Shown piece after piece: positions 5,765-54,625 of a stretch of 64,000 nucleotides of DNA; within the stretch, counting starts at the first letter, position 1, and every line of letters starts with the position of its first letter. The position numbers and the translations under genes were made by a program. The notes beneath the pieces were generated by a model. It did no database searches and was not told the origin of the DNA. It worked only from the letters and a program-made list of their open reading frames with translations. The stretch is from Escherichia coli (GTDB lineage: Bacteria; Pseudomonadota; Gammaproteobacteria; Enterobacterales; Enterobacteriaceae): assembly GCF_022846255.1 (NCBI RefSeq), contig NZ_AP025682.1. One strand, given 5' to 3'.

Positions 5765-5820
5765 GTCTGTCGGACGTAGGTCGGATAAGGCGTTTACGCC
5801 GCATCCGACAAAACATCCGG
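5765..5820. repeat. REP (repetitive extragenic palindromic) element in purC leader
   Basis: gtaggtcggataaggcgtttacgccgcatccgacaa matches the canonical E. coli REP pattern. Confidence 0.75.
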
Positions 5821-5875
5821 CACACCAGACAGCAAAAGATTTTAAAACGTTAATTCACACCCAGGAGTGATAAAG

Positions 5876-6589
5876 ATGCAAAAGCAAGCTGAGTTGTATC
5901 GTGGTAAAGCGAAAACCGTATACAGCACGGAAAACCCGGACCTGTTGGTGCTCGAATTCCGCAATGATACGTCAGCAGGGGATGGCGCGCGCATTGAGCA
6001 GTTTGATCGCAAAGGTATGGTGAACAACAAGTTCAACTACTTCATTATGAGCAAACTGGCTGAAGCGGGTATCCCGACTCAAATGGAGCGTCTGCTCTCC
6101 GATACCGAATGTCTGGTGAAAAAGCTGGATATGGTGCCGGTTGAGTGTGTCGTGCGTAACCGTGCTGCTGGCTCTCTGGTGAAACGTCTTGGAATCGAAG
6201 AAGGTATTGAGCTGAACCCGCCACTGTTCGATCTGTTCCTGAAAAACGACGCCATGCACGATCCGATGGTCAACGAATCTTACTGCGAAACCTTTGGCTG
6301 GGTGAGCAAAGAGAATCTGGCGCGTATGAAAGAGCTGACCTACAAAGCGAACGACGTGCTGAAAAAACTGTTCGATGATGCAGGTCTGATTCTGGTCGAC
6401 TTCAAGCTGGAGTTTGGTCTGTACAAAGGCGAAGTGGTTCTGGGCGATGAGTTCTCCCCGGACGGCAGCCGCCTGTGGGACAAAGAAACGCTGGAGAAAA
6501 TGGATAAAGACCGTTTCCGCCAGAGCCTCGGTGGCCTGATCGAAGCCTATGAAGCCGTTGCCCGCCGCCTGGGTGTACAGCTGGACTGA
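5876..6589 (+). CDS. purC: phosphoribosylaminoimidazole-succinocarboxamide synthase PurC (237 aa)
   Basis: N-terminus [34 protein letters not shown]-track ORF begins 3 codons upstream. Confidence 0.95.
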
Positions 6590-6756
6590 TTTTTCTATTC
6601 ATCATCTTGCCGTGCTACTGGCACGGCAAGACAACCGCTCTCATAAGATGTGCATTGAACGCTCATTCCTCCGCCATTTCATCCCGCTTTCCTGTGGTAA
6701 TCTTCCTCTGAACCACCTACGATCATTTCTATAATGAATATAATGTTGAGGTATCT

Positions 6757-7620
6757 ATGCGTTGGCAAGGGCGACGTGAAAGTGACAATGTTGAAGACAG
6801 GCGCAACAGCTCTGGTGGTCCGTCTATGGGCGGTCCCGGTTTTCGCCTGCCAAGCGGTAAAGGCGGGCTGATTTTACTGATAGTCGTGCTGGTTGCAGGC
6901 TACTATGGCGTTGATTTAACCGGGTTGATGACCGGACAGCCGGTTTCCCAACAGCAATCAACGCGGTCAATTAGCCCTAATGAAGACGAAGCCGCAAAAT
7001 TCACCTCGGTGATTCTGGCAACCACGGAAGACACCTGGGGACAGCAATTCGAGAAGATGGGTAAAACCTATCAGCAACCGAAGCTGGTCATGTACCGTGG
7101 AATGACGCGTACCGGCTGCGGGGCGGGCCAGTCCATAATGGGGCCATTCTATTGCCCGGCGGATGGCACAGTTTATATCGATCTCTCCTTCTATGATGAC
7201 ATGAAAGACAAACTTGGCGCGGATGGCGATTTTGCCCAGGGGTACGTTATCGCTCATGAAGTCGGTCATCATGTGCAGAAACTGTTAGGCATCGAGCCGA
7301 AAGTTCGTCAACTGCAACAAAACGCGACGCAGGCGGAAGTAAACCGCTTATCTGTGCGTATGGAACTCCAGGCCGACTGTTTTGCCGGTGTATGGGGGCA
7401 TAGTATGCAGCAGCAAGGTGTTCTGGAAACTGGCGATCTGGAAGAGGCGCTGAACGCGGCGCAGGCCATCGGCGATGACCGTTTACAACAGCAAAGTCAG
7501 GGGCGAGTAGTACCAGACAGTTTCACTCATGGCACTTCTCAGCAACGCTACAGCTGGTTTAAACGTGGTTTCGACAGCGGCGATCCGGCACAATGCAATA
7601 CTTTTGGTAAAAGCATTTAA
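6757..7620 (+). CDS. ypfJ: YpfJ, putative zinc metallopeptidase (287 aa)
   Basis: HEVGHH zinc-binding motif; N-terminal TM segment; position between purC and tmcA. Confidence 0.85.
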
Positions 7621-7634
7621 CTTCCGGGGCAGGG

Positions 7635-9650
7635 ATGGCTGAACTGACTGCGCTTCACACATTAACAGCGCAAATGAAACGTGAAGGGATCCGCCGCTTG
7701 CTGGTGTTGAGCGGGGAAGAGCGTTGGTGTTTTGATCATGCGCTTAAGTTGCGTGATGCCTTACCTGGCGACTGGCTGTGGATTTCGCCGCAGCCAGATG
7801 CTGAAAACCACTGTTCTCCCTCGGCACTACAAACTTTACTTGGGCGCGAGTTCCGGCATGCGGTATTCGACGCCCGCCACGGCTTTGATGCCGCTGCCTT
7901 TGCGGCACTTAGCGGAACGTTGAAAGCGGGAAGCTGGCTGGTGTTGTTACTCCCTGTATGGGATGAGTGGGAAAACCAACCTGATGCCGACTCGCTGCGC
8001 TGGAGTGATTGCCCTGACCCTATTGCGACGCCGCATTTTGTCCTGCACCTCAAACGTGTACTTACGGCGAATAACGACGCCATCCTCTGGCGGCAAAACC
8101 AGCCGTTCTCGTTGGCGCATTTTACTCCCCGTACTGACTGGCACTCCGCTACCGGCGCACCACAACCAGAACAACAGCAACTCTTACAGCAGCTACTGAC
8201 CATGCCGCCGGGCGTGGCAGCGGTAACTGCTGCGCGTGGGCGCGGTAAGTCGGCGTTGGCAGGGCAACTCATTTCTCGTATTGCGGGCAGTGCGATTGTC
8301 ACCGCGCCCGCAAAAGCGGCAACGGATGTACTGGCACAATTTGCGGGCGAGAAGTTTCGCTTTATTGCACCGGATGCCTTGTTAGCCAGCGATGAGCAAG
8401 CCGATTGGCTGGTGGTCGATGAAGCCGCAGCTATACCTGCGCCGTTGTTGCATCAACTGGTATCGCGTTTTCCTCGAACGTTGTTAACCACTACGGTGCA
8501 GGGCTACGAAGGCACCGGACGTGGTTTTTTGCTGAAATTTTGCGCTCGCTTTCCGCATTTACACCGTTTTGAACTACAACAGCCGATCCGTTGGGCGCAG
8601 GGATGCCCGCTGGAAAAAATGGTTAGTGAGGCACTGGTGTTTGACGATGAAAACTTCACCCATACACCACAAGGCAATATCGTTATTTCCGCATTTGAAC
8701 AGACGTTATGGCGAAGCGAGCCAGAAACGCCGTTAAAGGTTTATCAATTATTGTCTGGTGCGCACTACCGGACTTCGCCGCTGGATTTACGCCGCATGAT
8801 GGATGCACCAGGTCAACATTTTTTACAGGCGGCTGGCGAAAACGAGATTGCCGGAGCGCTGTGGCTGGTGGATGAGGGTGGATTATCTCAAGAACTCAGT
8901 CAGGCGGTATGGGCGGGTTATCGTCGTCCACGGGGCAATCTGGTGGCTCAATCGCTGGCGGCGCACGGCAGCAATCCACTGGCGGCGACATTGCGCGGAC
9001 GGCGGGTCAGCCGGATAGCAGTTCATCCGGCGCGTCAGCGGGAAGGCACAGGGCGGCAACTTATTGCTGGTGCTTTGCAATATACGCAGGACCTCGACTA
9101 TCTTTCGGTGAGTTTTGGTTACACCGGGGAATTATGGCGTTTCTGGCAACGCTGCGGTTTTGTGCTGGTGCGAATGGGTAATCATCGTGAAGCCAGCAGC
9201 GGTTGCTATACGGCGATGGCGCTGTTACCGATGAGTGATGCGGGTAAACAACTGGCTGAACGTGAGCATTACCGTTTACGTCGCGATGCGCAAGCTCTCG
9301 CGCAGTGGAATGGCGAAATGCTTCCTGTTGATCCACTAAACGATGCCGTCCTTTCTGACGACGACTGGCTTGAACTGGCCGGTTTTGCTTTCACTCATCG
9401 TCCGCTATTAACATCGTTAGGTTGCTTATTGCGTTTGCTACAAACCAGCGAACTGGCATTACCGGCGCTGCGTGGGCGTTTACAGAAAAACGCCAGTGAC
9501 GCGCAGTTATGTACCACACTTAAACTTTCAGGCCGTAAGCTGTTACTGGTTCGCCAGCGGGAAGAGGCCGCGCAGGCGCTATTCGCACTTGATGATGTTC
9601 GCACTGAGCGTCTGCGCGATCGCATAACGCAATGGCAATTTTTTCACTGA
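7635..9650 (+). CDS. tmcA: tRNA(Met) cytidine acetyltransferase TmcA (671 aa)
   Basis: ATPase/helicase-like region with GRGKS Walker A plus C-terminal acetyltransferase region; length matches TmcA. Confidence 0.9.
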   Translation: MAELTALHTLTAQMKREGIRRLLVLSGEERWCFDHALKLRDALPGDWLWISPQPDAENHCSPSALQTLLGREFRHAVFDARHGFDAAAFAALSGTLKAGSWLVLLLPVWDEWENQPDADSLRWSDCPDPIATPHFVLHLKRVLTANNDAILWRQNQPFSLAHFTPRTDWHSATGAPQPEQQQLLQQLLTMPPGVAAVTAARGRGKSALAGQLISRIAGSAIVTAPAKAATDVLAQFAGEKFRFIAPDALLASDEQADWLVVDEAAAIPAPLLHQLVSRFPRTLLTTTVQGYEGTGRGFLLKFCARFPHLHRFELQQPIRWAQGCPLEKMVSEALVFDDENFTHTPQGNIVISAFEQTLWRSEPETPLKVYQLLSGAHYRTSPLDLRRMMDAPGQHFLQAAGENEIAGALWLVDEGGLSQELSQAVWAGYRRPRGNLVAQSLAAHGSNPLAATLRGRRVSRIAVHPARQREGTGRQLIAGALQYTQDLDYLSVSFGYTGELWRFWQRCGFVLVRMGNHREASSGCYTAMALLPMSDAGKQLAEREHYRLRRDAQALAQWNGEMLPVDPLNDAVLSDDDWLELAGFAFTHRPLLTSLGCLLRLLQTSELALPALRGRLQKNASDAQLCTTLKLSGRKLLLVRQREEAAQALFALDDVRTERLRDRITQWQFFH

Positions 9651-9723
9651 CTCCTTCAATTTTCTCCCATGGTCATTGTGAGTCAGCGGCGTAAAATTAA
9701 TGACATCAGTTAAGGAGTTCGCC

Positions 9724-10422
9724 ATGAAACATGACCATTTTGTTGTTCAAAGCCCGGATAAACCAGCACAACAGTTGTTACTGCTTTTCCACGGTGTCGG
9801 GGATAACCCGGTGGCAATGGGGGAAATAGGTAGCTGGTTTGCGCCGCTGTTTCCTGATGCGCTGGTGGTGAGTGTCGGTGGCGCGGAGCCGAGCGGTAAT
9901 CCGGCGGGGCGTCAGTGGTTTTCGGTGCAGGGTATTACGGAAGATAATCGCCAGGCGCGTGTGAATGCCATCATGCCGACGTTTATTGAGACGGTGCGCT
10001 ACTGGCAGAAACAAAGCGGAGTAGGGGCTAATGCCACGGCGCTAATCGGTTTCTCACAAGGCGCGATTATGGCGCTGGAGAGCATTAAAGCCGAACCGGG
10101 CCTTGCTTCGCGCGTCATTGCCTTCAACGGACGCTACGCGAGCCTGCCGGAAACCGCGTCTACAGCCACAACAATTCACTTGATTCATGGCGGTGAAGAT
10201 CCGGTTATCGATCTGGCGCATGCGGTTGCGGCGCAGGAAGCGTTAATCAGTGCCGGTGGCGATGTGACGCTGGATATCGTGGAGGATTTAGGCCATGCGA
10301 TCGACAATCGCAGTATGCAATTAGCCCTGGATCACTTGCGTTATACCATTCCGAAACATTATTTCGACGAAGCGCTAAGCGGCGGTAAGCCTGGCGATGA
10401 TGATGTGATTGAAATGATGTAA
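9724..10422 (+). CDS. ypfH: YpfH esterase, phospholipase/carboxylesterase family (232 aa)
   Basis: Serine hydrolase motif GFSQGA; start at MKHDHFVVQSPDK within ORF-track ORF 9700..10422. Confidence 0.85.
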   Translation: MKHDHFVVQSPDKPAQQLLLLFHGVGDNPVAMGEIGSWFAPLFPDALVVSVGGAEPSGNPAGRQWFSVQGITEDNRQARVNAIMPTFIETVRYWQKQSGVGANATALIGFSQGAIMALESIKAEPGLASRVIAFNGRYASLPETASTATTIHLIHGGEDPVIDLAHAVAAQEALISAGGDVTLDIVEDLGHAIDNRSMQLALDHLRYTIPKHYFDEALSGGKPGDDDVIEMM

Positions 10423-10427
10423 TAATA

Positions 10428-10498
10428 GCCGGGTAGGTCTGATAAGACTGTATCAGGCATCATGGCCGGATGCGGCGTTAACGCCTTATCCGGCCACT
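10428..10498. repeat. tandem REP units (BIME-like) between ypfH and ypfN
   Basis: gggtaggtctgataagactgtatcaggcatc followed by ggccggatgcggcgttaacgccttatccggcc. Confidence 0.75.
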
Positions 10499-10502
10499 TA
10501 GC

Positions 10503-10703
10503 TTACTTCTTCGGTTGATCCTTTTTCGGCCAGTCGTCGTCATCGTCCCACTTATCGTTGAAATCACGATGCGGGGGAAGCTCCGGCTTGTTGGCGAGAA
10601 ATTTCTTATGGTCGACGCGCTTGAGATCTTTAATCACGTTCAGCAGGACGCCTACCAAAAAGACAATCACCAGAATCCACCAATATTTAGCCAGCCAGTC
10701 CAT
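10503..10703 (-). CDS. ypfN: small membrane protein YpfN (66 aa) with acidic C-terminus
   Basis: [27 protein letters not shown]... single TM helix; start at internal Met of ORF-track ORF. Confidence 0.8.
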
Positions 10704-10730
10704 GCTTATTTCCTCTTGCAGAACCACTCA

Positions 10731-11858
10731 TCAGGCGACGAGCTGTTCCATGATACGTTGATACATACGGGCAAGTAGCTGCAGGTCGGCAGCGTTCACA
10801 CATTCATTAATTTTATGAATTGTGGCATTGACCGGCCCGAGTTCCACCACCTGCGCCCCCATGCGGGCAATAAAGCGCCCGTCGGACGTTCCGCCTGTGG
10901 TCAGTAGCTGCGGTTTAATTTCATTATAGTGCTCAACCGCGTTAACGACCGCATCCACCAGTTTACCGCGCGCGGTCAAAAATGGCTGCCCGGAAAGCCA
11001 CCAATCCACCGTATAGCGCAGTTGATGTTTTTCAAGCAGGGCAAGCACCTGCGCTTTGATCATCTCATCCGTCAGTTCGGTGCTAAAGCGGAAGTTAAAC
11101 TGCACAAACAGTTCACCTGGAATAACGTTGTTACTGCCCGTTCCCGCCTGAATATTGGCAATCTGCATACTGGTCGCCGGGAAGAATTCATTACCCTGAT
11201 CCCACTCAATAGCCACTAATTCATTAATGAAAGGTGCTGCGCGATGTACCGGATTGTCAGCCAGATGTGGGTAGGCAACATGCCCCTGAACGCCATGAAT
11301 GGTAAGGTTGCAGGTTAACGATCCGCGACGACCATTTTTCACCACATCACCTACCACTTCGATACTCGACGGTTCGCCAACCAGACAGTAATCGAGACGC
11401 TCATTACGCGCCATTAACGCTTCGACGACTTTTACCGTACCATTGTGGGCACTAGCTTCTTCATCAGAGGTGATCAGAAATGCCAGTCGCCCCGTATGGT
11501 TGGGATGTTGTGCGACAAAGCGTTCTGCCGCTACTACCATCGCCGCCAGCGAGCCTTTCATATCTGCCGCACCGCGCCCGAATAACATGCCGTCACGAAT
11601 GGTTGGTTCAAACGGCGGATTGATCCAACGATCGGCGTCGCCAGGCGGCACCACGTCGGTATGCCCGGCAAAGGCCAATGTTTCACCTTGCCCACGCCAT
11701 GCCCAAAAATTCTGCGTATCGGCAAAGTCCATGCGTTCAACGGTAAAACCGATCGCCTGCAAACGTTCAATCAACAAAGCCTGGCATCCTGCGTCATCAG
11801 GACTCAGGGAAGGGCGGCGAATAAGCTGTTGTGTCAGCTCAATAACCGGGCACGACAT
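10731..11858 (-). CDS. dapE: succinyl-diaminopimelate desuccinylase DapE (375 aa)
   Basis: ORF track; M20 peptidase family; [27 protein letters not shown]-terminus. Confidence 0.95.
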
Positions 11859-11861
11859 AGA

Positions 11862-12236
<375 letters not shown>

Positions 12237-12598
12237 TTATGAGAATAAATACTCATTTAAAGGTGAAAACATTTTGCCTGCAAATGATTATCAGGAAATA
12301 TAACATTATCGAAGTATTCAAATTAACAACCATTAAATAACATTAAACATTTTTAACGTAAACATTAAGAATATTCATCTTGTTATCTGTCTGTATTTTA
12401 ACCAGAATTAAATCAGTATTAGATGCCGTATGAATATCTCGAAATGTTGCGGTGCATCACATACAAATCATCACCGCAGGACCATAGTATTTACATAAGG
12501 TTTGTCCCCCGGAGGTAGTCATCACAGCAATCGAGTAAATTAGCTTCACCACGGTATATTGTTTCCGTAGAATACCCATAATTATAAGAGAGGTTGTT

Positions 12599-12658
12599 AT
12601 GATTGAACGTGAACTGGGGAACTGGAAAGACTTTATCGAAGTTATGCTTCGTAAGTAA
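12599..12658 (+). CDS. ypfM: small protein YpfM (19 aa, MIERELGNWKDFIEVMLRK)
   Basis: Short ORF with GAGAGG Shine-Dalgarno about 7 nt upstream, in the AT-rich yffB-acrD intergenic region; below the ORF-track length cutoff. Confidence 0.6.
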   Translation: MIERELGNWKDFIEVMLRK

Positions 12659-12722
12659 TTCCTGAGACAAAGTACAAACAGCAAGAACCCGCTGAGCAGG
12701 TTCTTAATCGGAAAGTTGAAAA

Positions 12723-12752
12723 GGGCGACACATTGGCATGTCGCCTTTTTTA
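12723..12752. terminator. bidirectional intrinsic terminator (ypfM / acrD)
   Basis: ggcgacacattggcatgtcgcc hairpin flanked by T-run on plus strand and adjacent to acrD stop. Confidence 0.6.
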
Positions 12753-12756
12753 TTGC

Positions 12757-15700: not shown

Positions 15701-15870
15701 AGCGTCTGGGCCGATGCGCCGGGATAGTTAGCGGTCACTCGCACATTCGGTGGCGCGAGATCGGGGTATTGTTCAACGGGCAATGAAAAAATCGCCAGGG
15801 TACCTGTCAGACACAACAGGATTGCCAGCACCCAGGCAAAAATGGGGCGATCAATAAAGAAATTCGCCAT
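12757..15870 (-). CDS. acrD: RND-family aminoglycoside efflux pump AcrD (1037 aa)
   Basis: ORF track; full-length 12-TM RND transporter beginning [18 protein letters not shown]. Confidence 0.97.
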
Positions 15871-16033
15871 TAAAAGAGGACCTCGTGTTTCTGCGTATCG
15901 TTGTAGGCTTGGCTTGCTTCACTGTAGCGGCAAGGTACGAGCCAATCGTGGAGAAAAAAAGGAGTTAATGTAAATTATCATGCCCTTTTATACTGAACCT
16001 TAAGTGCCACTATTCTTTGGTCAATAAGAGGCA

Positions 16034-17749: not shown

Positions 17750-17939
17750 AAAAAATCATTAATGTTCCAGTTCGCTGAAACGAAATTTAGTCAGTGATGG
17801 GATTATTTGATCTGCCACAGTTTATAGCGAAATAGTTACTTATTCTGGGCACATGAACATTGCCGATTCCCCTGTAAGTCGGGTAATAACAACACTCATA
17901 TAAAGAATAAGGTTTTTACAACCAAAAAAGAAGGTCGTT

Positions 17940-19919
17940 ATGAATCGTTTTATTATGGCCAACAGTCAGCAATGTCTGGGTTGTCATGCTTGTGAAATCG
18001 CCTGTGTCATGGCTCACAATGACGAGCAACATGTCCTGAGCCAACACCATTTTCATCCCCGAATTACGGTTATCAAACATCAGCAGCAACGTAGTGCAGT
18101 GACCTGTCACCATTGTGAAGATGCGCCCTGCGCCCGTAGCTGCCCTAATGGCGCAATCAGCCACGTTGATGACAGCATTCAGGTCAATCAGCAAAAGTGT
18201 ATTGGCTGTAAATCCTGCGTGGTGGCCTGTCCATTTGGTACGATGCAAATCGTTCTGACACCCGTTGCGGTAGGAAAAGTAAAAGCCACGGCGCATAAAT
18301 GCGACCTTTGTGCAGGGCGCGAAAACGGTCCTGCCTGTGTCGAAAATTGCCCGGCGGACGCGCTGCAACTGGTCACTGACGCCGCACTCTCCGGCATGGC
18401 GAAATCCCGCCGCTTGCGCACCGCACGTCAGGAACAACAACCGTGGCATGCCAGTACCGCGGCGCAAGAAATGCCGGTAATGAGTAAAGTCGAGCAAATG
18501 CAGGCAACGCCCGCGCGTGGCGAGCCAGATAAACTGGCGATTGAAGCGCGCAAAACCGGTTTTGATGAAATTTATCTGCCATTCCGTGCCGATCAGGCAC
18601 AACGGGAAGCCTCGCGCTGCCTTAAGTGCGGCGAGCACAGCGTTTGTGAATGGACCTGCCCGCTGCATAACCATATACCGCAGTGGATTGAACTGGTGAA
18701 AGCCGGAAACATCGACGCCGCCGTCGAGCTTTCTCACCAGACCAACACCCTGCCGGAAATTACCGGACGCGTTTGCCCGCAAGACCGTTTGTGTGAAGGT
18801 GCCTGTACTATTCGCGATGAGCACGGCGCAGTAACTATCGGTAACATTGAACGCTACATTTCAGATCAGGCGTTGGCGAAAGGTTGGCGTCCTGACTTAA
18901 GCCATGTCACCAAAGTGGACAAGCGGGTGGCGATTATCGGTGCGGGTCCGGCAGGGCTGGCCTGTGCAGATGTTCTGACCCGCAATGGCGTGGCGGTGAC
19001 GGTGTACGATCGCCATCCAGAAATCGGTGGCTTGCTCACTTTCGGCATTCCTTCTTTCAAACTGGATAAATCCCTGCTGGCACGCCGTCGGGAAATCTTC
19101 AGCGCGATGGGGATTCACTTCGAACTCAATTGTGAAGTGGGTAAAGATGTTTCTTTGAATTCGCTTTTGGAACAATACGACGCGGTCTTCGTTGGCGTAG
19201 GCACTTACCGTTCCATGAAAGCGGGTTTACCCAATGAAGATGCGCCGGGCGTTTATGACGCGCTGCCGTTCCTCATCGCCAACACTAAACAGGTGATGGG
19301 ACTCGAAGAGCTACCGGAAGAGCCGTTTATCAATACCGCCGGACTTAACGTCGTGGTACTGGGCGGCGGCGACACCGCGATGGACTGTGTGCGTACCGCG
19401 CTGCGCCACGGCGCGAGTAATGTCACCTGCGCTTATCGTCGTGATGAAGCTAACATGCCAGGCTCGAAGAAAGAGGTGAAGAACGCCCGTGAAGAGGGGG
19501 CTAACTTCGAATTTAACGTCCAGCCGGTGGCGCTTGAGCTGAATGAACAAGGTCACGTCTGCGGGATTCGTTTCCTGCGCACGCGTCTTGGCGAGCCGGA
19601 TGCCCAGGGGCGTCGGCGTCCAGTGCCGGTGGAAGGCAGTGAATTTGTCATGCCAGCCGATGCGGTGATTATGGCGTTTGGCTTCAATCCGCACGGGATG
19701 CCGTGGCTGGAGTCGCACGGTGTAACGGTAGACAAATGGGGCCGCATCATCGCGGATGTGGAAAGCCAGTACCGTTACCAGACCACGAATCCGAAAATCT
19801 TCGCCGGTGGTGACGCCGTGCGTGGTGCGGATCTGGTGGTTACCGCAATGGCAGAAGGACGTCATGCGGCACAGGGGATCATTGACTGGCTGGGCGTAAA
19901 ATCAGTCAAATCTCACTGA
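17940..19919 (+). CDS. aegA: AegA, Fe-S cluster and FAD/NAD(P)-binding oxidoreductase (659 aa)
   Basis: N-terminal 4Fe-4S ferredoxin cysteine clusters (CxxCxxCxxxCP) followed by dinucleotide-binding motifs GAGPAG and GGGDTA. Confidence 0.9.
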   Translation: MNRFIMANSQQCLGCHACEIACVMAHNDEQHVLSQHHFHPRITVIKHQQQRSAVTCHHCEDAPCARSCPNGAISHVDDSIQVNQQKCIGCKSCVVACPFGTMQIVLTPVAVGKVKATAHKCDLCAGRENGPACVENCPADALQLVTDAALSGMAKSRRLRTARQEQQPWHASTAAQEMPVMSKVEQMQATPARGEPDKLAIEARKTGFDEIYLPFRADQAQREASRCLKCGEHSVCEWTCPLHNHIPQWIELVKAGNIDAAVELSHQTNTLPEITGRVCPQDRLCEGACTIRDEHGAVTIGNIERYISDQALAKGWRPDLSHVTKVDKRVAIIGAGPAGLACADVLTRNGVAVTVYDRHPEIGGLLTFGIPSFKLDKSLLARRREIFSAMGIHFELNCEVGKDVSLNSLLEQYDAVFVGVGTYRSMKAGLPNEDAPGVYDALPFLIANTKQVMGLEELPEEPFINTAGLNVVVLGGGDTAMDCVRTALRHGASNVTCAYRRDEANMPGSKKEVKNAREEGANFEFNVQPVALELNEQGHVCGIRFLRTRLGEPDAQGRRRPVPVEGSEFVMPADAVIMAFGFNPHGMPWLESHGVTVDKWGRIIADVESQYRYQTTNPKIFAGGDAVRGADLVVTAMAEGRHAAQGIIDWLGVKSVKSH

Positions 19920-19986
19920 TAGCCTGCGCAGACAAACCCGACTTCACAGCGTAAGATAATTGTTCATTTCGCGCTGTGGAGTCGGT

Positions 19987-20562
19987 ATGACGCAACAAAT
20001 CACCCTCGTTAAAGACAAAATTCTCTCCGATAACTATTTCACCCTGCACAACATTACTTACGATCTCACGCGCAAAGATGGCGAAGTTATCCGCCATAAA
20101 CGTGAAGTTTACGATCGCGGTAATGGTGCGACGATCCTCCTGTACAACGCGAAGAAAAAGACCGTGGTTCTGATTCGCCAGTTCCGCGTCGCTACCTGGG
20201 TTAATGGCAATGAAAGCGGGCAACTGATTGAAACCTGCGCCGGGCTGCTGGATAACGACGAACCGGAAGTGTGCATTCGCAAGGAAGCGATTGAAGAGAC
20301 GGGCTATGAAGTTGGCGAAGTCCGCAAATTATTTGAACTGTATATGTCGCCAGGCGGTGTGACTGAGCTAATCCACTTTTTTATCGCCGAATACAGTGAC
20401 AGCCAGCGCGCTAACGCCGGTGGTGGTGTCGAAGATGAAGATATTGAAGTGCTTGAGCTGCCGTTCAGCCAGGCGCTGGAGATGATTAAAACCGGCGAGA
20501 TACGTGACGGTAAGACGGTGTTATTGCTTAACTATTTGCAAATGTCACATTTAATGGACTGA
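19987..20562 (+). CDS. nudK: GDP-mannose pyrophosphatase NudK (Nudix hydrolase, 191 aa)
   Basis: Nudix box [22 protein letters not shown]; start at [11 protein letters not shown] within ORF-track ORF. Confidence 0.9.
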
Positions 20563-20687
20563 AAAATAACAATAATATTTCGTTGTTTATTATTGGCTCA
20601 ATCCGACAAATCCGATTGAGCCGCGCTACCTGCGCAACGAAGATACGACTTGTGCTGTTTGTTTGAACTTCTGGGGTCGTACCGTCC

Positions 20688-21731
20688 ATGCGATATCGCA
20701 TTTTCCTTCTCTTTTTTTTCGTTTTGTTGCCGATGTCTTTGGTGTGGGCGGCACCAGCGCAACGGGCGTTTTCCGACTGGCAGGTCACCTGTAATAATCA
20801 AAATTTCTGTGTAGCGCGCAATACGGGCGATCATAATGGACTGGTGATGACCCTGAGCCGCAGCGCCGGGGCGCATACCGATGCCGTTTTACGTATTGAG
20901 CGCGGCGGGTTGAAGTCGCCGGATGCGTCAGAAGGGGAGATAGCGCCACGGCTGCTGTTAGATGGTGAGCCGTTGGCGTTAAGTGGTGACAAGTGGCGGA
21001 TTTCACCATGGTTATTAGTAACCGATGATACGGCAACCATCACCGCGTTTTTGCAGATGATTCAGGAAGGGAGGGCGATCACCTTACGCGACGGCAATCA
21101 GACTATTTCTCTGAGTGGCTTAAAAGCGGCGTTGTTGTTTATTGATGCCCAGCAAAAGCGCGTTGGCAGTGAGACCGCGTGGATAAAGAAAGGGGACGAA
21201 CCGCCGCTCAGCGTACCGCCAGCGCCTGCGCTGAAAGAGGTCGCGGTGGTTAACCCAACGCCGACGCCACTCTCACGCGAAGAACGTAACGATTTGCTGG
21301 ATTATGGAAACTGGCGGATGAATGGTCTGCGCTGTTCGCTTGATCCGTTACGTCGTGAGGTGAATGTCACTGCGCTGACCGATGATAAAGCGCTGATGAT
21401 GATTAGCTGTGAGGCAGGGGCCTATAACACCATTGATTTGGCATGGATTGTGTCGCGTAAAAAGCCGCTGGCCTCGCGCCCGGTACGGTTGCGTTTGCCG
21501 TTCAACAACGGTCAGGAGACCAATGAACTGGAACTGATGAACGCAACATTCGATGAAAAATCGCGTGAACTGGTGACCTTAGCAAAAGGGCGCGGATTAA
21601 GCGATTGTGGCATTCAGGCGCGCTGGCGCTTTGACGGTCAGCGTTTTCGCCTGGTGCGTTACGCCGCAGAACCCACCTGCGATAACTGGCATGGGCCAGA
21701 CGCCTGGCCCACGTTGTGGATCACCCGTTAA
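20688..21731 (+). CDS. ypfG: DUF1176 periplasmic protein YpfG (347 aa)
   Basis: ORF track; N-terminal signal peptide; position between nudK and tktB. Confidence 0.8.
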   Translation: MRYRIFLLFFFVLLPMSLVWAAPAQRAFSDWQVTCNNQNFCVARNTGDHNGLVMTLSRSAGAHTDAVLRIERGGLKSPDASEGEIAPRLLLDGEPLALSGDKWRISPWLLVTDDTATITAFLQMIQEGRAITLRDGNQTISLSGLKAALLFIDAQQKRVGSETAWIKKGDEPPLSVPPAPALKEVAVVNPTPTPLSREERNDLLDYGNWRMNGLRCSLDPLRREVNVTALTDDKALMMISCEAGAYNTIDLAWIVSRKKPLASRPVRLRLPFNNGQETNELELMNATFDEKSRELVTLAKGRGLSDCGIQARWRFDGQRFRLVRYAAEPTCDNWHGPDAWPTLWITR

Positions 21732-21744
21732 ACAAAATGGCGGG

Positions 21745-21800
21745 GACATGTAGACCGGATAAGACGCACCAGCGTCACATCCGACAATCAGCATCCGGCG
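21745..21800. repeat. REP-like element between ypfG and tktB
   Basis: tgtagaccggataagacgcaccagcgtcacatccgacaatcagcatccggcg. Confidence 0.65.
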
Positions 21801-21807
21801 ATCACCA

Positions 21808-23811
21808 TCAGGCACCTTTCACTCCCAGTACCTTATGCGCTTTTGCCACAATATTCTCGGCGGTAAAGCCAAAGAACGGGAACAGCTTATCCGCCGGAGC
21901 AGATTCCCCATAACCTGTCATCCCGACAATTGTCCCTTTCAGACCAACATATTTGTACCAGTAATCGGCAATACCCGCTTCTACTGCCACGCGGGCAGAA
22001 ACATTTGAAGGCAGTACCGACTCGCGATATTCCTCATCCTGGGCATCGAAAATATCGGTCGAGGGCAGGGAAACCACGCGAACATTGCGACCTTCTCCCG
22101 CTAATTTCTCTGCCGCTTGCAGGGTGATTTCCATCTCTGAACCGGTGGCAATCAGAATAATATCTGGCTTACCGCCGCTGTCTTTCAGCACATAACCGCC
22201 ACGAGCAATCTCTTTAACCTGATCCGGTGTTCGTTCTACCTGTGCCAGATTCTGCCTTGAGAGGATCAGTGCTGTCGGTCCGTTGTGGCGCTCAACCGCC
22301 AGCTTCCAGCCAACCGCCGCTTCCACCTGATCGCACGGTCGCCAGGTGCTGAAATTTGGCGTTAAGCGCAGACTAGCCAGTTGCTCAACAGCCTGGTGCG
22401 TCGGACCATCTTCGCCCAGACCAATTGAGTCGTGGGTATAAACCATAATCTGCCGCGCTTTCATCAGTGCCGCCATCCGCGCGGCGTTACGGGCGTATTC
22501 AACAAACATCAGGAACGTCGCGGTATACGGCACAAAGCCGCCGTGGTGCGCGATGCCGTTGGCGATAGCGGTCATACCAAATTCACGCACCCCGTAGTGA
22601 ATGTAGTTGCCCGCCGGATCTTCCTTCAGCGAAACAGAACCTTTCCAGATGGTCAGGTTGCTGGGAGCCAGATCCGCCGAACCGCCGAGCAACTCAGGCA
22701 GCATCGGCCCGTAAGCGTTAAGCGTATTTTGCGAAGCCTTACGGGTAGCGATTTTCGCCGGATTCGCCTGCAACTCATTGATATATTTCTGAGTCGTTTT
22801 CTCCCAGTCCTTCGGCAAACCGCCGCTCATTCGACGGGTAAACTCTTCTGCCAGTTGCGGATGAGCCTTTTTATAGGCGGCAAACTTCTCATTCCAGCTC
22901 TGCTGCGCTTTTTCGCCTTTTTCACGGGCATCCCAGGCGTGATAAATCTCTTTAGGGATCTCAAATGGCGGATGGTGCCAGCCCAGTTTTTGCCGTGCCA
23001 GAGCTACTTCTTCTTCCCCCAGCGGTGCGCCGTGCGCCTCTTCCTTACCTGCTTTATTCGGCGAACCAAAGCCAATCACCGTACGGCAGATAATCAGCGA
23101 CGGCTTATCTTTCACGCTTTGCGCTTCAAGGATCGCTTCCTTCACCGCCTGCGGATCGTGGCCGTCGATCTCGTGGACCACATGCCAGTGATAGGCTTCA
23201 AAACGTTTTGCCGTATCGTCGGTAAACCAGCCTTCGGTTTCACCGTCGATGGAAATACCGTTGTGATCGTAAAAACCAATCAGCTTGCCCAGCCCCAGCG
23301 TGCCCGCCAGCGAACAGACTTCGTGAGAGATACCTTCCATCAGGCAGCCGTCGCCCATAAACACATAGGTGAAGTGATCGACAATTTCATGATCCGGCTG
23401 ATTAAACTGCGCCGCCAGCGTACGCTCTGCTATCGCCAGCCCGACGGCGTTCGCCAAACCTTGTCCAAGAGGACCGGTGGTGGTTTCAACACCTGGCGTA
23501 TAGCCGATTTCCGGGTGACCAGGGGTTTTCGAATGCAACTGACGGAAGTTCTTCAGTTCTTCCAGTGGCAGGTCGTAACCGGTCAGATGCAGCAAACTGT
23601 AGAGCAGCATCGACGCGTGACCGTTGGAAAGAATAAAGCGGTCACGGTCATACCAGGTTGGGTCGGTGGGGTTATGTTTAAGAAAATCGTTCCACAGCAC
23701 TTCGGCAATATCAGCCATGCCCATCGGCGCGCCGGGATGACCAGAATTGGCTTTTTGTACCGCATCCATACTGAGTGCGCGAATCGCATTGGCAAGGTCT
23801 TTTCGGGACAT
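21808..23811 (-). CDS. tktB: transketolase 2 TktB (667 aa)
   Basis: N-terminus [34 protein letters not shown]-track ORF extends 21 codons further upstream to 23874 and would overlap talA. Confidence 0.93.
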
Positions 23812-33099: not shown

Positions 33100-33109
33100 G
33101 GAGTAACAG

Positions 33110-35123: not shown

Positions 35124-35135
35124 AAGTGTACGGAC

Positions 35136-35240
35136 AGTCCCCTCGCCCCTTTGGGGAGAGGGTTAGGGTGAGGGGAACAGAGTCGCGCCGGTGCAAACAA
35201 TTACCCTCACCCCGGCCCCTCGGCTTCCAGAGTGAGGGAA
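35136..35240. repeat. GC-rich imperfect palindromic repeat in the eutG-eutH spacer
   Basis: cccctcgcccctttggggagaggg and gggtgagggg...ccctcacccc inverted repeats; family not assigned with confidence. Confidence 0.55.
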
Positions 35241-48568: not shown

Positions 48569-49465
48569 TTATTCCTTTTCCAGAGCCTTGCGAATAAAAC
48601 CGCCGTGTTGATCCAGGCATTTTTTAGCTTCATCGGCATCGAGATTTTTCAGTACCATCACAATGGCCGTTTTACAGTTGCGCTCGCAAGCAATTAACGC
48701 CGCTTCCGCTTGTTCGGCATTACATCCGGTAGCGTTTTTGACGATATTGACCTGGCGCACATGCAGTTTTTCGTTGGTGGCGACCACATCGACCATCAGG
48801 TTGCCGAACACTTTGCCGGATTTAATCATCAGCCCGGTGGAGAGCATGTTGAGCACCAGTTTCTGCGCCGTGCCTGCTTTCATTCGCGAAGAACCGGTAA
48901 CAACTTCGGCACCAACTACCGGCGTAATAGCAAACTCTGCGGTGGATGAAACGGCACTCCCCGGATTACAGGAAATGCCCACTGTACGGCAGCCGAGTTG
49001 GCGCGCGTATTCCAGCCCGGCAATCACATACGGCGTGCGTCCGCTGGCCGCAATACCAACCACCACATCCTGCGCGGTTAAGCCGATATTTTTCAGATCA
49101 TTAACACCACCTTCCCGGCTATCTTCTGCGCCTTCCACCGCGTGCTGAATGGCATATTCGCCGCCAGCAATCAAACCAACTACCAGGCCCGGTTTCACGC
49201 CGTAGGTCGGCGGACATTCGCTGGCATCCAGAATCCCCAGACGACCGGATGTTCCCGCACCGAGATAAATCAGACGGCCGCCGCCGCTTACCTGGGGGTG
49301 GATAACATCGATCGCCGCGGCGATATCCGGCAGTACGCGCTCAACGGCGAGTGGTACGGTTTTATCTTCATCGTTGATAATCCGGCACATTTCCAGCGTT
49401 GATACGCGGTCAATTTCAGCCGAGGCGGCGTTCGAGCCTTCGGTAATCATCTTTTCAAGTTGCAT
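48569..49465 (-). CDS. murQ: N-acetylmuramic acid 6-phosphate etherase MurQ (298 aa)
   Basis: ORF track; SIS-domain protein; 3 bp upstream of murP. Confidence 0.93.
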
Positions 49466-49744
49466 CGGTGGTGACCTTAATATTTGCGATCAAATAATTG
49501 CAGATAAATGGGATCATATATCCCGATTTGATAGACACAAAGGAATCATTAAGTCCGAATATTACTCATGTGATGTCACTGAAAATGATTGCGCGCTGAC
49601 GTAACGCTTGAGGTGCTGCATAAAGCAGCGACTAAATTGAGATTTTCCTGAATTAGTGAGCTGATCCGCAGCAATATTTTGTTTATCCTGTATTTTCAGA
49701 GGGAATGGAGTGTAACGCTCTGTATTAACAAGGAGAGCATTAAA

Positions 49745-50536
49745 ATGGGTAAACTCACGGGCAAGACAGCACTGATTACGGGCGCATTGCAGGGAATTGG
49801 CGAAGGAATTGCCAGAACTTTTGCGCGTCATGGCGCAAACCTAATCTTGCTGGATATCTCCCCTGAGATCGAAAAGCTGGCGGACGAACTGTGTGGCCGT
49901 GGTCATCGCTGTACGGCGGTTGTCGCCGATGTGCGTGACCCGGCGTCGGTAGCCGCAGCTATTAAGCGCGCTAAGGAAAAAGAAGGGCGCATTGATATTC
50001 TGGTGAATAACGCAGGCGTTTGTCGTCTGGGCAGTTTCCTTGATATGAGCGATGAAGATCGCGATTTCCATATTGATATCAATATAAAAGGCGTATGGAA
50101 CGTCACGAAGGCGGTGCTGCCGGAGATGATTGCCCGCAAAGATGGCCGGATTGTGATGATGTCTTCAGTCACTGGCGATATGGTGGCAGACCCGGGCGAA
50201 ACGGCGTACGCCTTAACGAAAGCGGCGATTGTTGGCCTGACTAAATCGCTGGCGGTGGAGTACGCGCAGTCTGGTATTCGCGTTAACGCCATCTGCCCTG
50301 GATACGTTCGCACGCCAATGGCGGAAAGCATTGCCCGCCAGTCGAACCCGGAAGATCCAGAATCGGTGCTGACTGAAATGGCGAAAGCAATCCCGATGCG
50401 TCGCCTCGCCGATCCGCTGGAAGTCGGCGAACTGGCGGCCTTCCTCGCATCGGATGAATCCAGCTATTTAACCGGTACACAGAATGTGATTGATGGCGGC
50501 AGCACACTGCCGGAGACGGTTAGCGTCGGCATCTGA
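49745..50536 (+). CDS. ucpA: short-chain dehydrogenase/reductase UcpA (263 aa)
   Basis: Start at MGKLTGKTALITGALQGIG (Rossmann motif) inside ORF-track ORF 49679..50536. Confidence 0.9.
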   Translation: MGKLTGKTALITGALQGIGEGIARTFARHGANLILLDISPEIEKLADELCGRGHRCTAVVADVRDPASVAAAIKRAKEKEGRIDILVNNAGVCRLGSFLDMSDEDRDFHIDINIKGVWNVTKAVLPEMIARKDGRIVMMSSVTGDMVADPGETAYALTKAAIVGLTKSLAVEYAQSGIRVNAICPGYVRTPMAESIARQSNPEDPESVLTEMAKAIPMRRLADPLEVGELAAFLASDESSYLTGTQNVIDGGSTLPETVSVGI

Positions 50537-50548
50537 TTCACCTCTGTT

Positions 50549-50580
50549 TCCTCCCTGCATTTGTGGGGAGGATTTCGTCT
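50549..50580 (+). terminator. terminator after ucpA
   Basis: tcctccc-tgcatttgtg-gggagga hairpin followed by T-rich tract. Confidence 0.5.
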
Positions 50581-50693
50581 TATTCCCTTTTCAACTTCCA
50601 AATCACCAAACGGTATATAAAACCGTTACTCCTTTCACGTCCGTTATAAATATGATGGCTATTAGAAAGTCATTAAATTTATAAGGGTGCGCA

Positions 50694-51710
50694 ATGGCCG
50701 TTAACTTACTGAAAAAGAACTCACTCGTGCTGGTTGCTTCTCTGCTACTGGCGGGCCATGTACAGGCAACGGAACTGCTGAACAGTTCTTATGACGTCTC
50801 CCGCGAGCTGTTTGCCGCCCTGAACCCGCCGTTTGAGCAACAATGGGCAAAAGATAACGGTGGCGACAAACTGACGATTAAACAATCTCATGCCGGATCA
50901 TCAAAACAGGCGCTGGCAATTTTGCAGGGTTTAAAAGCCGACGTTGTCACTTATAACCAGGTGACCGACGTACAAATCCTGCACGATAAAGGCAAGCTGA
51001 TCCCAGCGGACTGGCAGTCGCGCCTGCCGAATAATAGCTCGCCGTTCTACTCCACCATGGGCTTCCTGGTGCGTAAGGGCAACCCGAAGAATATCCACGA
51101 CTGGAACGACCTGGTACGCTCTGACGTGAAGCTGATTTTCCCGAACCCGAAAACGTCGGGTAACGCGCGTTATACCTACCTTGCGGCATGGGGCGCAGCA
51201 GACAAAGCCGACGGTGGTGATAAAGCCAAAACCGAACAGTTTATGACCCAGTTCCTGAAAAACGTTGAAGTGTTCGATACTGGCGGTCGTGGCGCGACCA
51301 CCACTTTTGCCGAGCGCGGCCTGGGCGATGTGCTGATCAGCTTCGAGTCGGAAGTGAACAACATCCGTAAACAGTATGAAGCGCAGGGCTTTGAAGTGGT
51401 GATTCCGAAAACCAACATTCTGGCGGAATTCCCGGTGGCGTGGGTCGATAAAAATGTGCAGGCCAACGGCACGGAAAAAGCGGCAAAAGCCTACCTGAAC
51501 TGGCTCTACAGCCCGCAGGCGCAAACCATCATCACCGACTATTACTACCGCGTAAATAACCCGGAAGTCATGGACAAACTGAAAGATAAATTCCCGCAGA
51601 CCGAGCTGTTCCGCGTGGAAGACAAATTTGGCTCCTGGCCGGAAGTGATGAAAACCCACTTCACCAGCGGCGGCGAGTTAGACAAGCTGTTAGCGGCGGG
51701 GCGTAAGTAA
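50694..51710 (+). CDS. cysP: thiosulfate/sulfate ABC transporter periplasmic binding protein CysP (338 aa)
   Basis: ORF track; signal peptide. Confidence 0.95.
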
Positions 51711-52543
51711 TGTTTGCCGTTTCTTCAAGACGCGTGCTGCCGGGCTTTACCTTAAGCCTCGGCACCAGTCTGCTGTTTGTGTGCCTGATTTTGCTGCTGC
51801 CGCTCTCCGCGCTGGTGATGCAACTGGCCCAGATGAGCTGGGCGCAGTACTGGGAGGTGATCACCAACCCGCAGGTGGTCGCAGCCTATAAAGTGACGCT
51901 GCTGTCGGCGTTTGTGGCATCGATTTTTAACGGCGTTTTCGGTCTGCTGATGGCGTGGATCTTAACCCGCTATCGCTTTCCGGGTCGCACGCTGCTTGAT
52001 GCGCTGATGGATTTACCCTTTGCGCTGCCAACGGCAGTCGCCGGTTTAACGCTGGCCTCGCTCTTTTCCGTGAACGGTTTTTACGGTGAATGGCTGGCGA
52101 AGTTTGATATCAAAGTCACCTATACCTGGCTGGGGATTGCGGTGGCGATGGCCTTTACCAGCATTCCGTTTGTGGTGCGCACCGTGCAGCCGGTGCTGGA
52201 AGAGTTAGGCCCGGAATATGAAGAGGCGGCAGAAACGCTCGGCGCAACACGCTGGCAGAGTTTTCGCAAAGTGGTGCTGCCGGAACTATCTCCGGCGCTG
52301 GTGGCGGGTGTGGCGCTGTCGTTTACCCGCAGCCTCGGTGAGTTTGGCGCGGTGATTTTTATCGCCGGGAATATCGCCTGGAAAACAGAAGTGACGTCGC
52401 TGATGATCTTTGTTCGCTTACAGGAGTTTGATTACCCGGCGGCGAGCGCGATTGCCTCGGTGATCCTCGCGGCATCGCTGCTGTTGCTGTTCTCAATTAA
52501 CACTCTGCAAAGTCGCTTTGGTCGGCGTGTGGTAGGTCATTAA
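51710..52543 (+). CDS. cysU: sulfate/thiosulfate ABC transporter permease CysU (CysT) (277 aa)
   Basis: ORF track; start overlaps cysP stop. Confidence 0.95.
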   Translation: MFAVSSRRVLPGFTLSLGTSLLFVCLILLLPLSALVMQLAQMSWAQYWEVITNPQVVAAYKVTLLSAFVASIFNGVFGLLMAWILTRYRFPGRTLLDALMDLPFALPTAVAGLTLASLFSVNGFYGEWLAKFDIKVTYTWLGIAVAMAFTSIPFVVRTVQPVLEELGPEYEEAAETLGATRWQSFRKVVLPELSPALVAGVALSFTRSLGEFGAVIFIAGNIAWKTEVTSLMIFVRLQEFDYPAASAIASVILAASLLLLFSINTLQSRFGRRVVGH

Positions 52544-53418
52544 TGGCGGAAGTGACACAATTGAAGCGTTATGACGCGCGCCCGATTAACTGGGGCAAAT
52601 GGTTTCTGATTGGCATCGGGATGCTGGTATCGGCGTTCATCCTGCTGGTACCGATGATTTATATCTTCGTACAGGCGTTCAGCAAAGGACTGATGCCGGT
52701 GTTACAAAATCTGGCCGATCCGGACATGCTGCACGCCATCTGGCTGACGGTGATGATCGCGCTGATTGCCGTACCGGTAAACCTGGTGTTCGGTATTCTG
52801 CTGGCCTGGCTGGTGACGCGCTTTAACTTCCCCGGACGCCAGCTATTGCTGACGCTGTTGGACATTCCGTTTGCCGTGTCGCCGGTGGTTGCTGGTCTGG
52901 TGTATCTGCTGTTCTACGGCTCTAACGGCCCGCTGGGCGGCTGGCTGGATGAACATAATCTGCAAATTATGTTCTCCTGGCCGGGTATGGTACTGGTCAC
53001 CATCTTCGTGACGTGTCCGTTTGTGGTGCGCGAGCTGGTGCCGGTAATGTTAAGTCAGGGCAGCCAGGAAGACGAAGCGGCTATTTTGCTTGGCGCGTCC
53101 GGCTGGCAGATGTTCCGTCGCGTCACGCTGCCGAACATCCGCTGGGCGCTGCTTTACGGCGTGGTGCTGACCAACGCCCGCGCGATTGGCGAGTTTGGCG
53201 CGGTGTCGGTGGTTTCTGGCTCGATTCGCGGCGAAACACTTTCGCTGCCGTTACAGATTGAATTGCTGGAGCAGGACTACAACACCGTCGGCTCCTTTAC
53301 CGCCGCGGCGCTGTTGACGCTGATGGCGATTATCACCCTGTTTTTAAAGAGTATGTTGCAGTGGCGCCTGGAGAACCAGGAAAAACGCGCGCAGCAGGAG
53401 GAGCATCATGAGCATTGA
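52543..53418 (+). CDS. cysW: sulfate/thiosulfate ABC transporter permease CysW (291 aa)
   Basis: ORF track; start overlaps cysU stop. Confidence 0.95.
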
Positions 53419-54505
53419 GATTGCCAATATTAAGAAGTCGTTTGGTCGCACCCAGGTGCTGAACGATATCTCACTGGATATTCCTTCTGGTCAGATGGTC
53501 GCGTTGCTTGGGCCGTCCGGTTCCGGGAAAACCACGCTGCTGCGCATTATCGCCGGGCTGGAGCATCAAACCAGTGGGCATATTCGCTTTCACGGTACCG
53601 ACGTGAGCCGTCTGCACGCGCGGGACCGTAAAGTCGGTTTCGTGTTCCAGCATTACGCGCTGTTTCGCCATATGACGGTGTTTGACAATATCGCTTTTGG
53701 CCTGACGGTGTTGCCACGGCGTGAACGCCCGAATGCGGTGGCGATCAAAGCGAAAGTGACAAAATTGCTGGAGATGGTGCAGCTTGCTCATCTGGCAGAC
53801 CGCTATCCTGCGCAGCTTTCCGGCGGCCAGAAACAGCGTGTGGCGCTGGCGCGCGCGCTTGCTGTAGAACCGCAAATTCTGCTGCTTGATGAACCGTTTG
53901 GCGCGCTGGATGCGCAGGTGCGTAAAGAGTTGCGTCGCTGGCTGCGTCAGTTACATGAAGAGCTGAAATTCACCAGCGTGTTTGTGACCCATGACCAGGA
54001 AGAAGCGACCGAAGTAGCCGATCGTGTAGTGGTGATGAGCCAGGGCAATATCGAGCAGGCTGATGCACCGGACCAGGTATGGCGCGAACCAGCGACCCGT
54101 TTTGTACTCGAATTTATGGGCGAAGTTAACCGCCTGCAGGGAACCATTCGCGGCGGGCAGTTCCATGTTGGCGCACATCGCTGGCCGCTGGGCTATACAC
54201 CTGCGTATCAGGGGCCAGTGGATCTCTTCCTGCGTCCGTGGGAAGTGGATATCAGCCGCCGTACCAGCCTCGATTCGCCGCTGCCGGTACAGGTACTGGA
54301 AGCCAGCCCGAAAGGCCACTACACCCAATTAGTCGTGCAGCCGCTGGGGTGGTACAACGAAGCGCTGACGGTCGTGATGCACGGCGACGACGCCCCGCAA
54401 CGTGGCGAGCGTTTATTCGTTGGTCTGCAACATGCGCGGCTGTATAACGGCGACGAGCGTATTGAAACCCGCGATGAGGAACTTGCTCTCGCACAAAGCG
54501 CCTGA
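53408..54505 (+). CDS. cysA: sulfate/thiosulfate ABC transporter ATP-binding protein CysA (365 aa)
   Basis: Walker [10 protein letters not shown] and ABC signature [15 protein letters not shown]. Confidence 0.96.
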
Positions 54506-54526
54506 TAGGTTGAGTGAATGTTAAAC

Positions 54527-54559
54527 GCCCGGAGGCGCTTCCCGCGATCCGGGCTTTTT
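54527..54559 (+). terminator. terminator after cysA
   Basis: gcccgg...ccgggc hairpin followed by ttttt. Confidence 0.55.
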
Positions 54560-54577
54560 AATGGCAAGGTTTGTAAC

Positions 54578-54625
54578 CTGTAGGTCTGATAAGACGCGCA
54601 AGCGTCGCATCAGGCAACACCACGT
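54578..54625. repeat. REP element between cysA and cysM
   Basis: ctgtaggtctgataagacgcgcaagcgtcgcatcaggca. Confidence 0.75.

Follow-up and report, generated by a model that had tools for sequence, protein, structure and literature searches.

Are the palindromes that lie between the genes of a 64,000-nucleotide stretch of Escherichia coli DNA (assembly GCF_022846255.1, contig NZ_AP025682.1; hereafter the window) members of the repetitive extragenic palindrome (REP) family, in what state have they been preserved, and what might they do where they stand? Work on REPs goes back to the early 1980s, and the annotation of E. coli K-12 lists several hundred of them (697 in one recent count). A first-pass annotation of the window, made from the letters by eye, had placed REP elements, or bacterial interspersed mosaic elements (BIMEs) built from them, at four positions: in the purC leader (site 1), between ypfH and ypfN (site 2), after ypfG (site 3) and between cysA and cysM (site 4). 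Our analysis assigns all four loci to genuine E. coli REP family sequence, comprising five units of the y and z1 classes, with one locus carrying a decayed BIME-like pair. We put the probability of this reading at about 0.93; the roles of the units at their individual loci are what we infer from it. The occurrence of REPs here is already known, being a textbook feature of E. coli, and the identification is thus correct but ordinary.

The genomic setting was established by comparison with other strains. Of the 5426 complete E. coli genomes that served as the population sample throughout, 5420 contain a 10-kb slice of the window, and this slice shares 99.4% identity with several human isolates of the species. 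Comparison with the K-12 annotation showed that the gene order is that of K-12 MG1655 at 2.53–2.60 Mb, in reverse orientation, and the gene names given in the first pass are therefore right.

The first-pass annotation had proposed a pattern search with the REP consensus. Run with the REP tail CTTATCMGGCCTAC at up to two mismatches, this search gave exactly four matches (at 5776, 10433, 21750 and 54580, all on the minus strand), where shuffled sequences lead one to expect 0.39; a count of four was reached in 0 of 100 shuffles. Direct reading, combined with blastn-short searches using the y and z1 consensus and K-12 units, resolved five palindromic units at the four loci, with E-values from 1e-9 to 1e-16. 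The consensus strings were checked against K-12 units. Across the whole 64-kb window, blastn-short gave no sixth REP position with E < 0.01, and a rescan with two z2 units read from K-12 BIME-1 copies placed no unit of the z2 class in the window. The REP units also emerged as repeats of one another in a repeat search within the window (families D10 and I4). Two other searches of the window returned no match, namely Rfam at gathering thresholds and a 37-nt degenerate full-length REP pattern at up to three mismatches, the latter because its fixed 5-nt loop spacing and its G/T positions did not suit these variants. REPs were thus found at every one of the four places named, and the outer coordinates first given for the set (5765–54625) enclose its first and last copies.

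E. coli REPs are defined as extragenic palindromes of 20–50 nt that follow a GTAG tetranucleotide, with a stem bearing two conserved mismatches, and they occur in hundreds of copies that fall into three classes, y, z1 and z2 (PMC8266576; PMC3479197; bioRxiv 10.64898/2026.03.23.713779). In the window, the GTAG foot is present in four of the five units (at 5776, 10433, 21750 and 54580, plus strand), the fifth (10464–10497, minus strand) having GTGG in its place. The latter and the unit at 10433 together make up site 2, where they are referred to below as 2b and 2a, respectively. An AA/GC bulge separates a 7-bp lower stem from an upper stem of 4–5 bp at sites 1, 2b, 3 and 4, and all five units lie between annotated genes. 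When folded as RNA, single units reach −15 to −20 kcal/mol (z −3.8 to −4.9). We also aligned the hairpins of 13 units, drawn from the window, from non-orthologous K-12 loci, from one other strain and from the oligonucleotide of the TnpA-REP crystal. In this alignment, 97.9% of cells pair, compared with 24–39% when the partners are slid; three pairs are changed on both sides, and the covariation score was reached in 0 of 500 shuffles. Compensatory base changes were observed between REP classes.

As a separate observation, all GTAG-first units are on the plus strand, which has a positive GC skew (+0.037) and is the lagging-strand template, on which IS200/IS605-type enzymes act; with four cases, this coincidence is not significant.

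High copy number is likewise evident. The 36-nt unit of site 4, used as a query, finds at least 19–74 places per genome in 5425 of the 5426 genomes (the tally being limited to 40 pieces per record), and queries of sites 1 and 4 that include their flanks find a median of six places per genome by megablast. With regard to class, sites 1 and 2b belong to y (94–97% to the consensus), and site 4 (94% over 36 nt), site 3 (92% over 24 nt) and site 2a (by its descent from an allele of strain SC477, described below) belong to z1. The window units share with the y and z1 REPs of E. coli (group 2, TnpA-REP-associated) the GTAG foot, the 7-bp lower stem and the AA/GC bulge, together with the 4–5 bp upper stem, a 4-nt loop, the extragenic position and tens to hundreds of copies per genome. 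Sites 1 and 4 do so without difference of substance, whereas the lower stem is weakened at site 3, unit 2a lacks the tip and the bulge, and unit 2b lacks the GTAG. The description of these repeats as typical of the enterobacterial core genome is therefore supported by sequence, GTAG foot, bulged hairpin, extragenic position and high copy number alike.

All units are G+C-rich hairpins located after genes, and terminator-like hairpins adjoin sites 4 and 1, as might be seen if the palindromes were ordinary intrinsic (Rho-independent) terminators, or protein operators, that merely resemble REPs. We consider this explanation extremely improbable. No T-run follows any of the REP units on either strand, and the terminator scan names none of them; it is their sequence, beyond their shape, that matches the REP consensus and recurs in tens of copies per genome; and the true terminator-like hairpins nearby are separate sequences. 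One of these, the bamC terminator, consists of a hairpin at 5670–5691 with a T-run, just upstream of the PurR operator of purC, and was identified by the terminator scan. The other is a terminator-like G+C-rich hairpin followed by TTTTT at 54527–54559 (plus strand), seen only in a fold of 54518–54621 and omitted by a simple terminator scan. It lies just after cysA, 20 nt upstream of the site 4 REP, and is identical in K-12.

Having assigned the units to the REP family, we considered how they are arranged. The combined label ‘REP/BIME’ is apt for the ypfH–ypfN locus, which has two inverse, if decayed, units, but the other three loci hold single units. Similarly, a placement ‘at operon boundaries’ describes the two convergent gene pairs well, but the cysA–cysM copy lies between same-strand cys genes, within the cys gene cluster. 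The four loci are spaced 4.6–33 kb apart. Tandem Repeats Finder gives only two short rows, of 2.0–2.3 copies, and shows no CRISPR-like array in the window, in agreement with the statement that the repeats have no CRISPR-like periodicity.

At site 1, a single y-type unit, GTAGGTCGGATAAGGCGTTTACGCCGCATCCGAC, occupies 5776–5809 (plus strand) between bamC, which ends at 5663, and purC, whose ATG is at 5877. The unit is 94% identical to the y consensus by blast, agrees in 31 of 32 bases with the REP oligonucleotide of the TnpA-REP co-crystal (PMC3479197), and folds at −18.8 kcal/mol (z −3.8). Cho et al. 2011 (PMC3159470) list for purC a PurR operator, ACGCAAACGTGTGCGT, which here occupies 5707–5722 (plus strand); the unit lies 54 nt downstream of this operator, with 67 nt between it and the purC ATG. 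Given a PurR-controlled promoter overlapping the operator, the unit probably lies within the purC leader, as the first pass had it, a placement that is suggested by the position of the operator and by a comparison across genera.

The purC unit is carried on an insert of ~100 nt that sits between two copies of a leader segment, the whole spanning 5723–5860 (plus strand; copy A 5723–5757, copy B 5825–5860). These copies, each of ~35 nt, represent the segment between the operator and the ribosome site. Each aligns to the single Citrobacter copy and both align to one another, with a score that 0 of 2000 shuffles reached; the gapless core of the duplication is 5745–5757 / 5848–5860. The repeat search found no flanking duplications at sites 2–4.

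To place this insert in a wider context, we applied a pattern for the N-terminal part of purC to a set with a single genome for each species, which yielded at least 120 loci. Among the matches listed, 68 other enterobacterial species representatives have the operator 49–53 nt before the purC ATG and no insert. The genera with an insert-free leader include Citrobacter, Klebsiella, Enterobacter, Kosakonia, Leclercia, Buttiauxella and Raoultella, and in Citrobacter, Klebsiella and Enterobacter the leader was seen to be single-copy and without a REP. E. albertii and three further representatives of Escherichia have 152–153 nt between operator and ATG and carry the REP in the corresponding position. 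In Salmonella enterica subsp. arizonae, this distance is 126 nt and includes a REP-like unit that lacks GTAG, and in Intestinirhabdus alba it is 128 nt and includes a different palindromic insert; the flanks are duplicated in both. Several Cedecea and related genomes have, instead, an ERIC-like element upstream of purC, as judged by eye against ERIC sequences.

The location of the REP between the PurR operator and the ribosome-binding site, its near-fixation in E. coli, and its presence in E. albertii, other Escherichia and Salmonella arizonae would all suit a unit that has been co-opted as a cis-regulator of purC, whether through pausing or attenuation or through processing or stability of the 5′ untranslated region. 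However, the 49–53-nt spacing without insert in the 68 species representatives listed above tells against such a role, as does the drift of the insert sequence in several lineages: the foot reads ACAG in one (L057), and the foot-side stem and bulge region are changed in another (L010). We regard such co-option as quite improbable.

Site 4 carries the other unit without difference of substance from its class. A single z1 REP, GTAGGTCTGATAAGACGCGCAAGCGTCGCATCAGGC, occupies 54580–54615 (plus strand) between cysA, which ends at 54505, and cysM, which starts with GTG at 54639; the unit ends 23 nt before this start codon. It is 94% identical to the z1 consensus over 36 nt by blast, has a CT dinucleotide directly 5′ of the GTAG, and folds at −20.4 kcal/mol (z −4.9). 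The cysA–cysM spacer overall is 99% identical to K-12.

The decayed pair is at site 2, where ypfH (ends at 10422) and ypfN (minus strand, ends at 10503) converge. Unit 2a (10433–10462, plus strand) is a z1-derived REP with a GTAG foot from which 10 bp of the hairpin tip have been deleted (GTAGGTCTGATAAGAC/TGTATCAGGCATCA); the upper stem and the bulge are lost, and the remaining hairpin still folds. Unit 2b (10464–10497, minus strand) is a y-type REP in inverse orientation to 2a, 97% identical to the y consensus over 31 nt, with GTGG in place of GTAG at its foot owing to the absence of 11 bp found in K-12. Folded together, the pair reaches −39.4 kcal/mol (z −5.4). In strain SC477, this locus retains an intact form, in which a linker of 13 nt joins a complete z1 unit to a y unit. 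From the alignment of these alleles, the one in the window is derived from the SC477 form through two deletions, one of 10 bp at the z1 tip and one of 7 bp in the linker, and both alleles lack the 11 bp that complete the GTAG of the y unit in K-12.

With two REPs in alternating orientation and a linker, site 2 has the composition of a BIME (at least two REPs), which sites 1, 3 and 4 do not. Its linker of 1–6 nt, compared with 13 nt in K-12 and SC477, is too short for the IHF-binding L motif of two K-12 BIME-1 copies. It may be compared with clusters of the BIME-2 type, such as the four-unit cluster between eutG and eutH in K-12, in which y and z1 units alternate with short linkers. Site 2 pairs a z1-derived unit with an inverse y unit, head to head; it differs from such clusters in being a single pair and not a tandem array, and in that both of its units are damaged. 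It also recalls the REPINs of Pseudomonas, which are REP doublets mobilised by RAYT, in having two inverted REPs that form a larger hairpin, whereas three of the four window loci are singlets. These single REP units could be remnants of REPINs. None of the four loci showed signs of having moved recently.

At site 3, a single z1-like REP, GTAGACCGGATAAGACGCACCAGCGTCACATCCGAC, occupies 21750–21785 (plus strand) between convergent ypfG (ends at 21731) and tktB (minus strand, stop codon 21808–21810). Point changes relative to K-12 have reduced the lower stem to 5 pairs, and the unit folds at −15.0 kcal/mol (z −3.9). Tandem Repeats Finder and the repeat search also detected here a 14-nt tandem repeat resembling CATCCGACAATCAC (21778–21809, plus strand, 2.3 copies), which copies the 3′ arm of the REP and extends into the tktB stop codon. 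The number of 14-nt units varies between strains, an extra copy being present in strain L7_E1373. Two other alleles of the locus were read; they differ by a 19-nt partial duplication of the 5′ part of the REP and by extra 14-nt copies of the 3′ arm.

The four loci were also followed across the population. Queries of 95–125 nt, made of each unit with 30 nt of unique flank on each side and counted at 80% query coverage or more, found site 1 (bamC–purC) in 5359 of the 5426 genomes (98.8%) and site 4 (cysA–cysM) in 5414 (99.8%). The window allele of site 2 is present in 2561 genomes, and most of the remainder match the y-unit half only, as expected of the K-12-type allele. For site 3, the window allele is present in 1312 genomes, and 2427 give no megablast match. 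Sites 1 and 4 are thus near-fixed, and sites 2 and 3 vary by small insertions and deletions.

K-12 has loci orthologous to the REP loci of the window and, in the same stretch, three further REP loci that the window does not have (yfeS–cysM, yfeX–yfeW and eutG–eutH). The BIME-1 between yfeS and cysM is absent, as is yfeS itself, and at 55551–55560 of the window the cysM stop codon lies 2 nt from the end of a convergent yfeK-like open reading frame. For the BIME-1 between yfeX and yfeW, the window presents an empty site (46965–47140; 19407–19647 in the K-12 sequence, L001). A 27-nt terminator hairpin flanks this element on both sides in K-12 and occurs once in the window. The adjoining yfeW (PBP4B) is cut down in the window to its first ~75 and last ~28 nt, and a 12-nt match at 47029–47040, considered as a REP remnant, was rejected because it represents the 3′ end of that deleted gene.

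The third of these loci is occupied by another repeat family. In the eutG–eutH spacer of the window (35124–35292), a BoxC unit at 35130–35179 (minus strand) has 96–100% identity to K-12 BoxC members (supplement, PMC2267715), and a second, degenerate copy with a CCG loop variant lies at ~35200–35244 (plus strand). The claim that REPs are the only recognisable repeat family in the window does not stand in the face of this pair. BoxC repeats occur as inverted pairs of type A and type B (Holder et al. 2015, PMC4666352), and the arrangement in the window is consistent with this. Exactly this slot, with its boundaries unchanged, is filled by four REPs in K-12 and in two further strains; the BoxC allele of the window is present in only 303 of the 5426 genomes.

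BoxC belongs with the PIT/TMECO intrastrand-triplex repeats, which resemble REPs in being short, G+C-rich and intergenic in E. coli and are linked with local instability, but BoxC is unrelated in sequence (CCCTCACCCTAACCCTCTCCCC...) and has no GTAG foot. The ERIC (or IRU) elements are likewise enterobacterial, intergenic and palindromic, and in Cedecea and certain related genomes an ERIC-like element takes up the region ahead of purC where Escherichia has its REP, but ERIC elements are ~127 bp long and again unrelated in sequence to REPs; no ERIC element was found in the window.

The comparison with K-12 also brought out differences that lie apart from the repeats. At 49555–49603, murR, which encodes the murQP repressor, is almost wholly missing: ~920 bp are replaced by a 48-nt junction that retains the 3′ end of the gene only, and murQ consequently lies 280 nt from ucpA. 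An open reading frame at 49679–50536 was considered as murR and rejected, since the K-12 alignment identifies it as ucpA. The cryptic prophage CPZ-55, which splits eutA and eutB in K-12, is absent near 37897–37919, leaving the eut operon uninterrupted. At the start of the window (1–2496), there is no alignment to the K-12 hyfA–hyfB region after bcp, and a 353-residue open reading frame is found at 1386–2447; the hyf operon appears to be missing here.

What the units might do is suggested by studies of REPs elsewhere. REPs are non-autonomous, and are recognised, cut and rejoined as single-stranded hairpins by a single-copy TnpA-REP (RAYT) enzyme (PMC8266576; bioRxiv 10.64898/2026.03.23.713779). 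Once transcribed, they form stem-loops that block 3′-to-5′ exonucleases and act as partial, often Rho-dependent, terminators (bioRxiv 10.64898/2026.03.23.713779). By the same mechanism, the hairpins in the window, presumably spread by the RAYT transposase, would block 3′ exonucleases and partly terminate transcription when transcribed. Because published REPs have these two activities, we suggest that at site 4 the unit and the terminator-like hairpin preceding it may jointly lower read-through into cysM and protect the upstream cys message, and that the units at ypfH/ypfN and ypfG/tktB may serve as 3′ caps for the convergent transcripts there. For the purC unit, which would be carried within a 5′ leader, no role is established. 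Two of the window loci lie in convergent and two in same-strand gene pairs, which agrees with the reported genome-wide split of ~60% convergent and ~40% same-strand (bioRxiv 10.64898/2026.03.23.713779).

Several points weigh against assigning the units a place in a working REP system with local roles. The tnpA-REP gene is not in the window. What we say of function at these loci is carried over from other REPs and would hold only as far as the analogy does. The REP in the purC leader does not suit a 3′-end model, being in a 5′ leader. Effects of REPs are also context dependent, and terminal REPs bring no general gain in mRNA half-life (bioRxiv 10.64898/2026.03.23.713779). Finally, unit 2a lacks its bulge and upper stem, unit 2b lacks its GTAG and the stem at site 3 is weak, and strong selection at these two loci is therefore disfavoured.

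These points lead to the possibility that the units are REPs with no local function, that is, neutral relics of RAYT-driven spread which are kept or decay by drift. In its favour, sites 2 and 3 are multi-allelic, with internal deletions, a lost GTAG, stem mutations and slipped tandem duplications; three K-12 REP loci have no counterpart in the window, and BoxC stands where K-12 has four REPs; and the 2026 preprint cited above reports no general effect on mRNA half-life. On the other hand, sites 1 and 4 are intact and retained at the frequencies given above, and the purC-leader insert has been kept in E. albertii, in other Escherichia and, as a REP-like unit, in Salmonella. Such retention could itself reflect low deletion rates instead of selection. 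On balance, we consider that neutrality throughout is possible, if unlikely, and we retain the reading of the four loci as genuine REPs, for sites 2–4 of which roles at transcript ends may be proposed.

The manner in which these elements arrived deserves separate comment. Two REP or BIME presence–absence comparisons disclose long target duplications, of ~35 nt in the purC leader and of ~27 nt at the K-12 yfeX–yfeW BIME-1. The IS200/IS605-type single-strand mechanism, which has been proposed for TnpA-REP, makes no larger target duplication. For this reason, it might be proposed that REPs and BIMEs enter by copy-choice or template switching at hairpins, that the purC leader, in which different genera have a REP, an ERIC-like element or another palindromic insert, is a preferred landing site, and that an old, near-fixed purC REP has since become regulatory. 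We put this forward as a speculation that is improbable as it stands. The literature searched contains no mention of such target duplications around REPs; with two cases, the observation may be a lead only.

Taken as a test of reading by eye, the recognition of REPs in the first-pass annotation was accurate to the base, which gives it value for calibration and little importance in itself. For the biology of the family, the window displays the known behaviour of REPs within a single stretch of chromosome: two copies are fixed, two are decaying through small insertions and deletions, three loci of K-12 are absent, and one slot is taken by another family. What may merit further interest is the occurrence of long target duplications at two insertions, and the finding that in several genera the purC leader has repeatedly received insertions.

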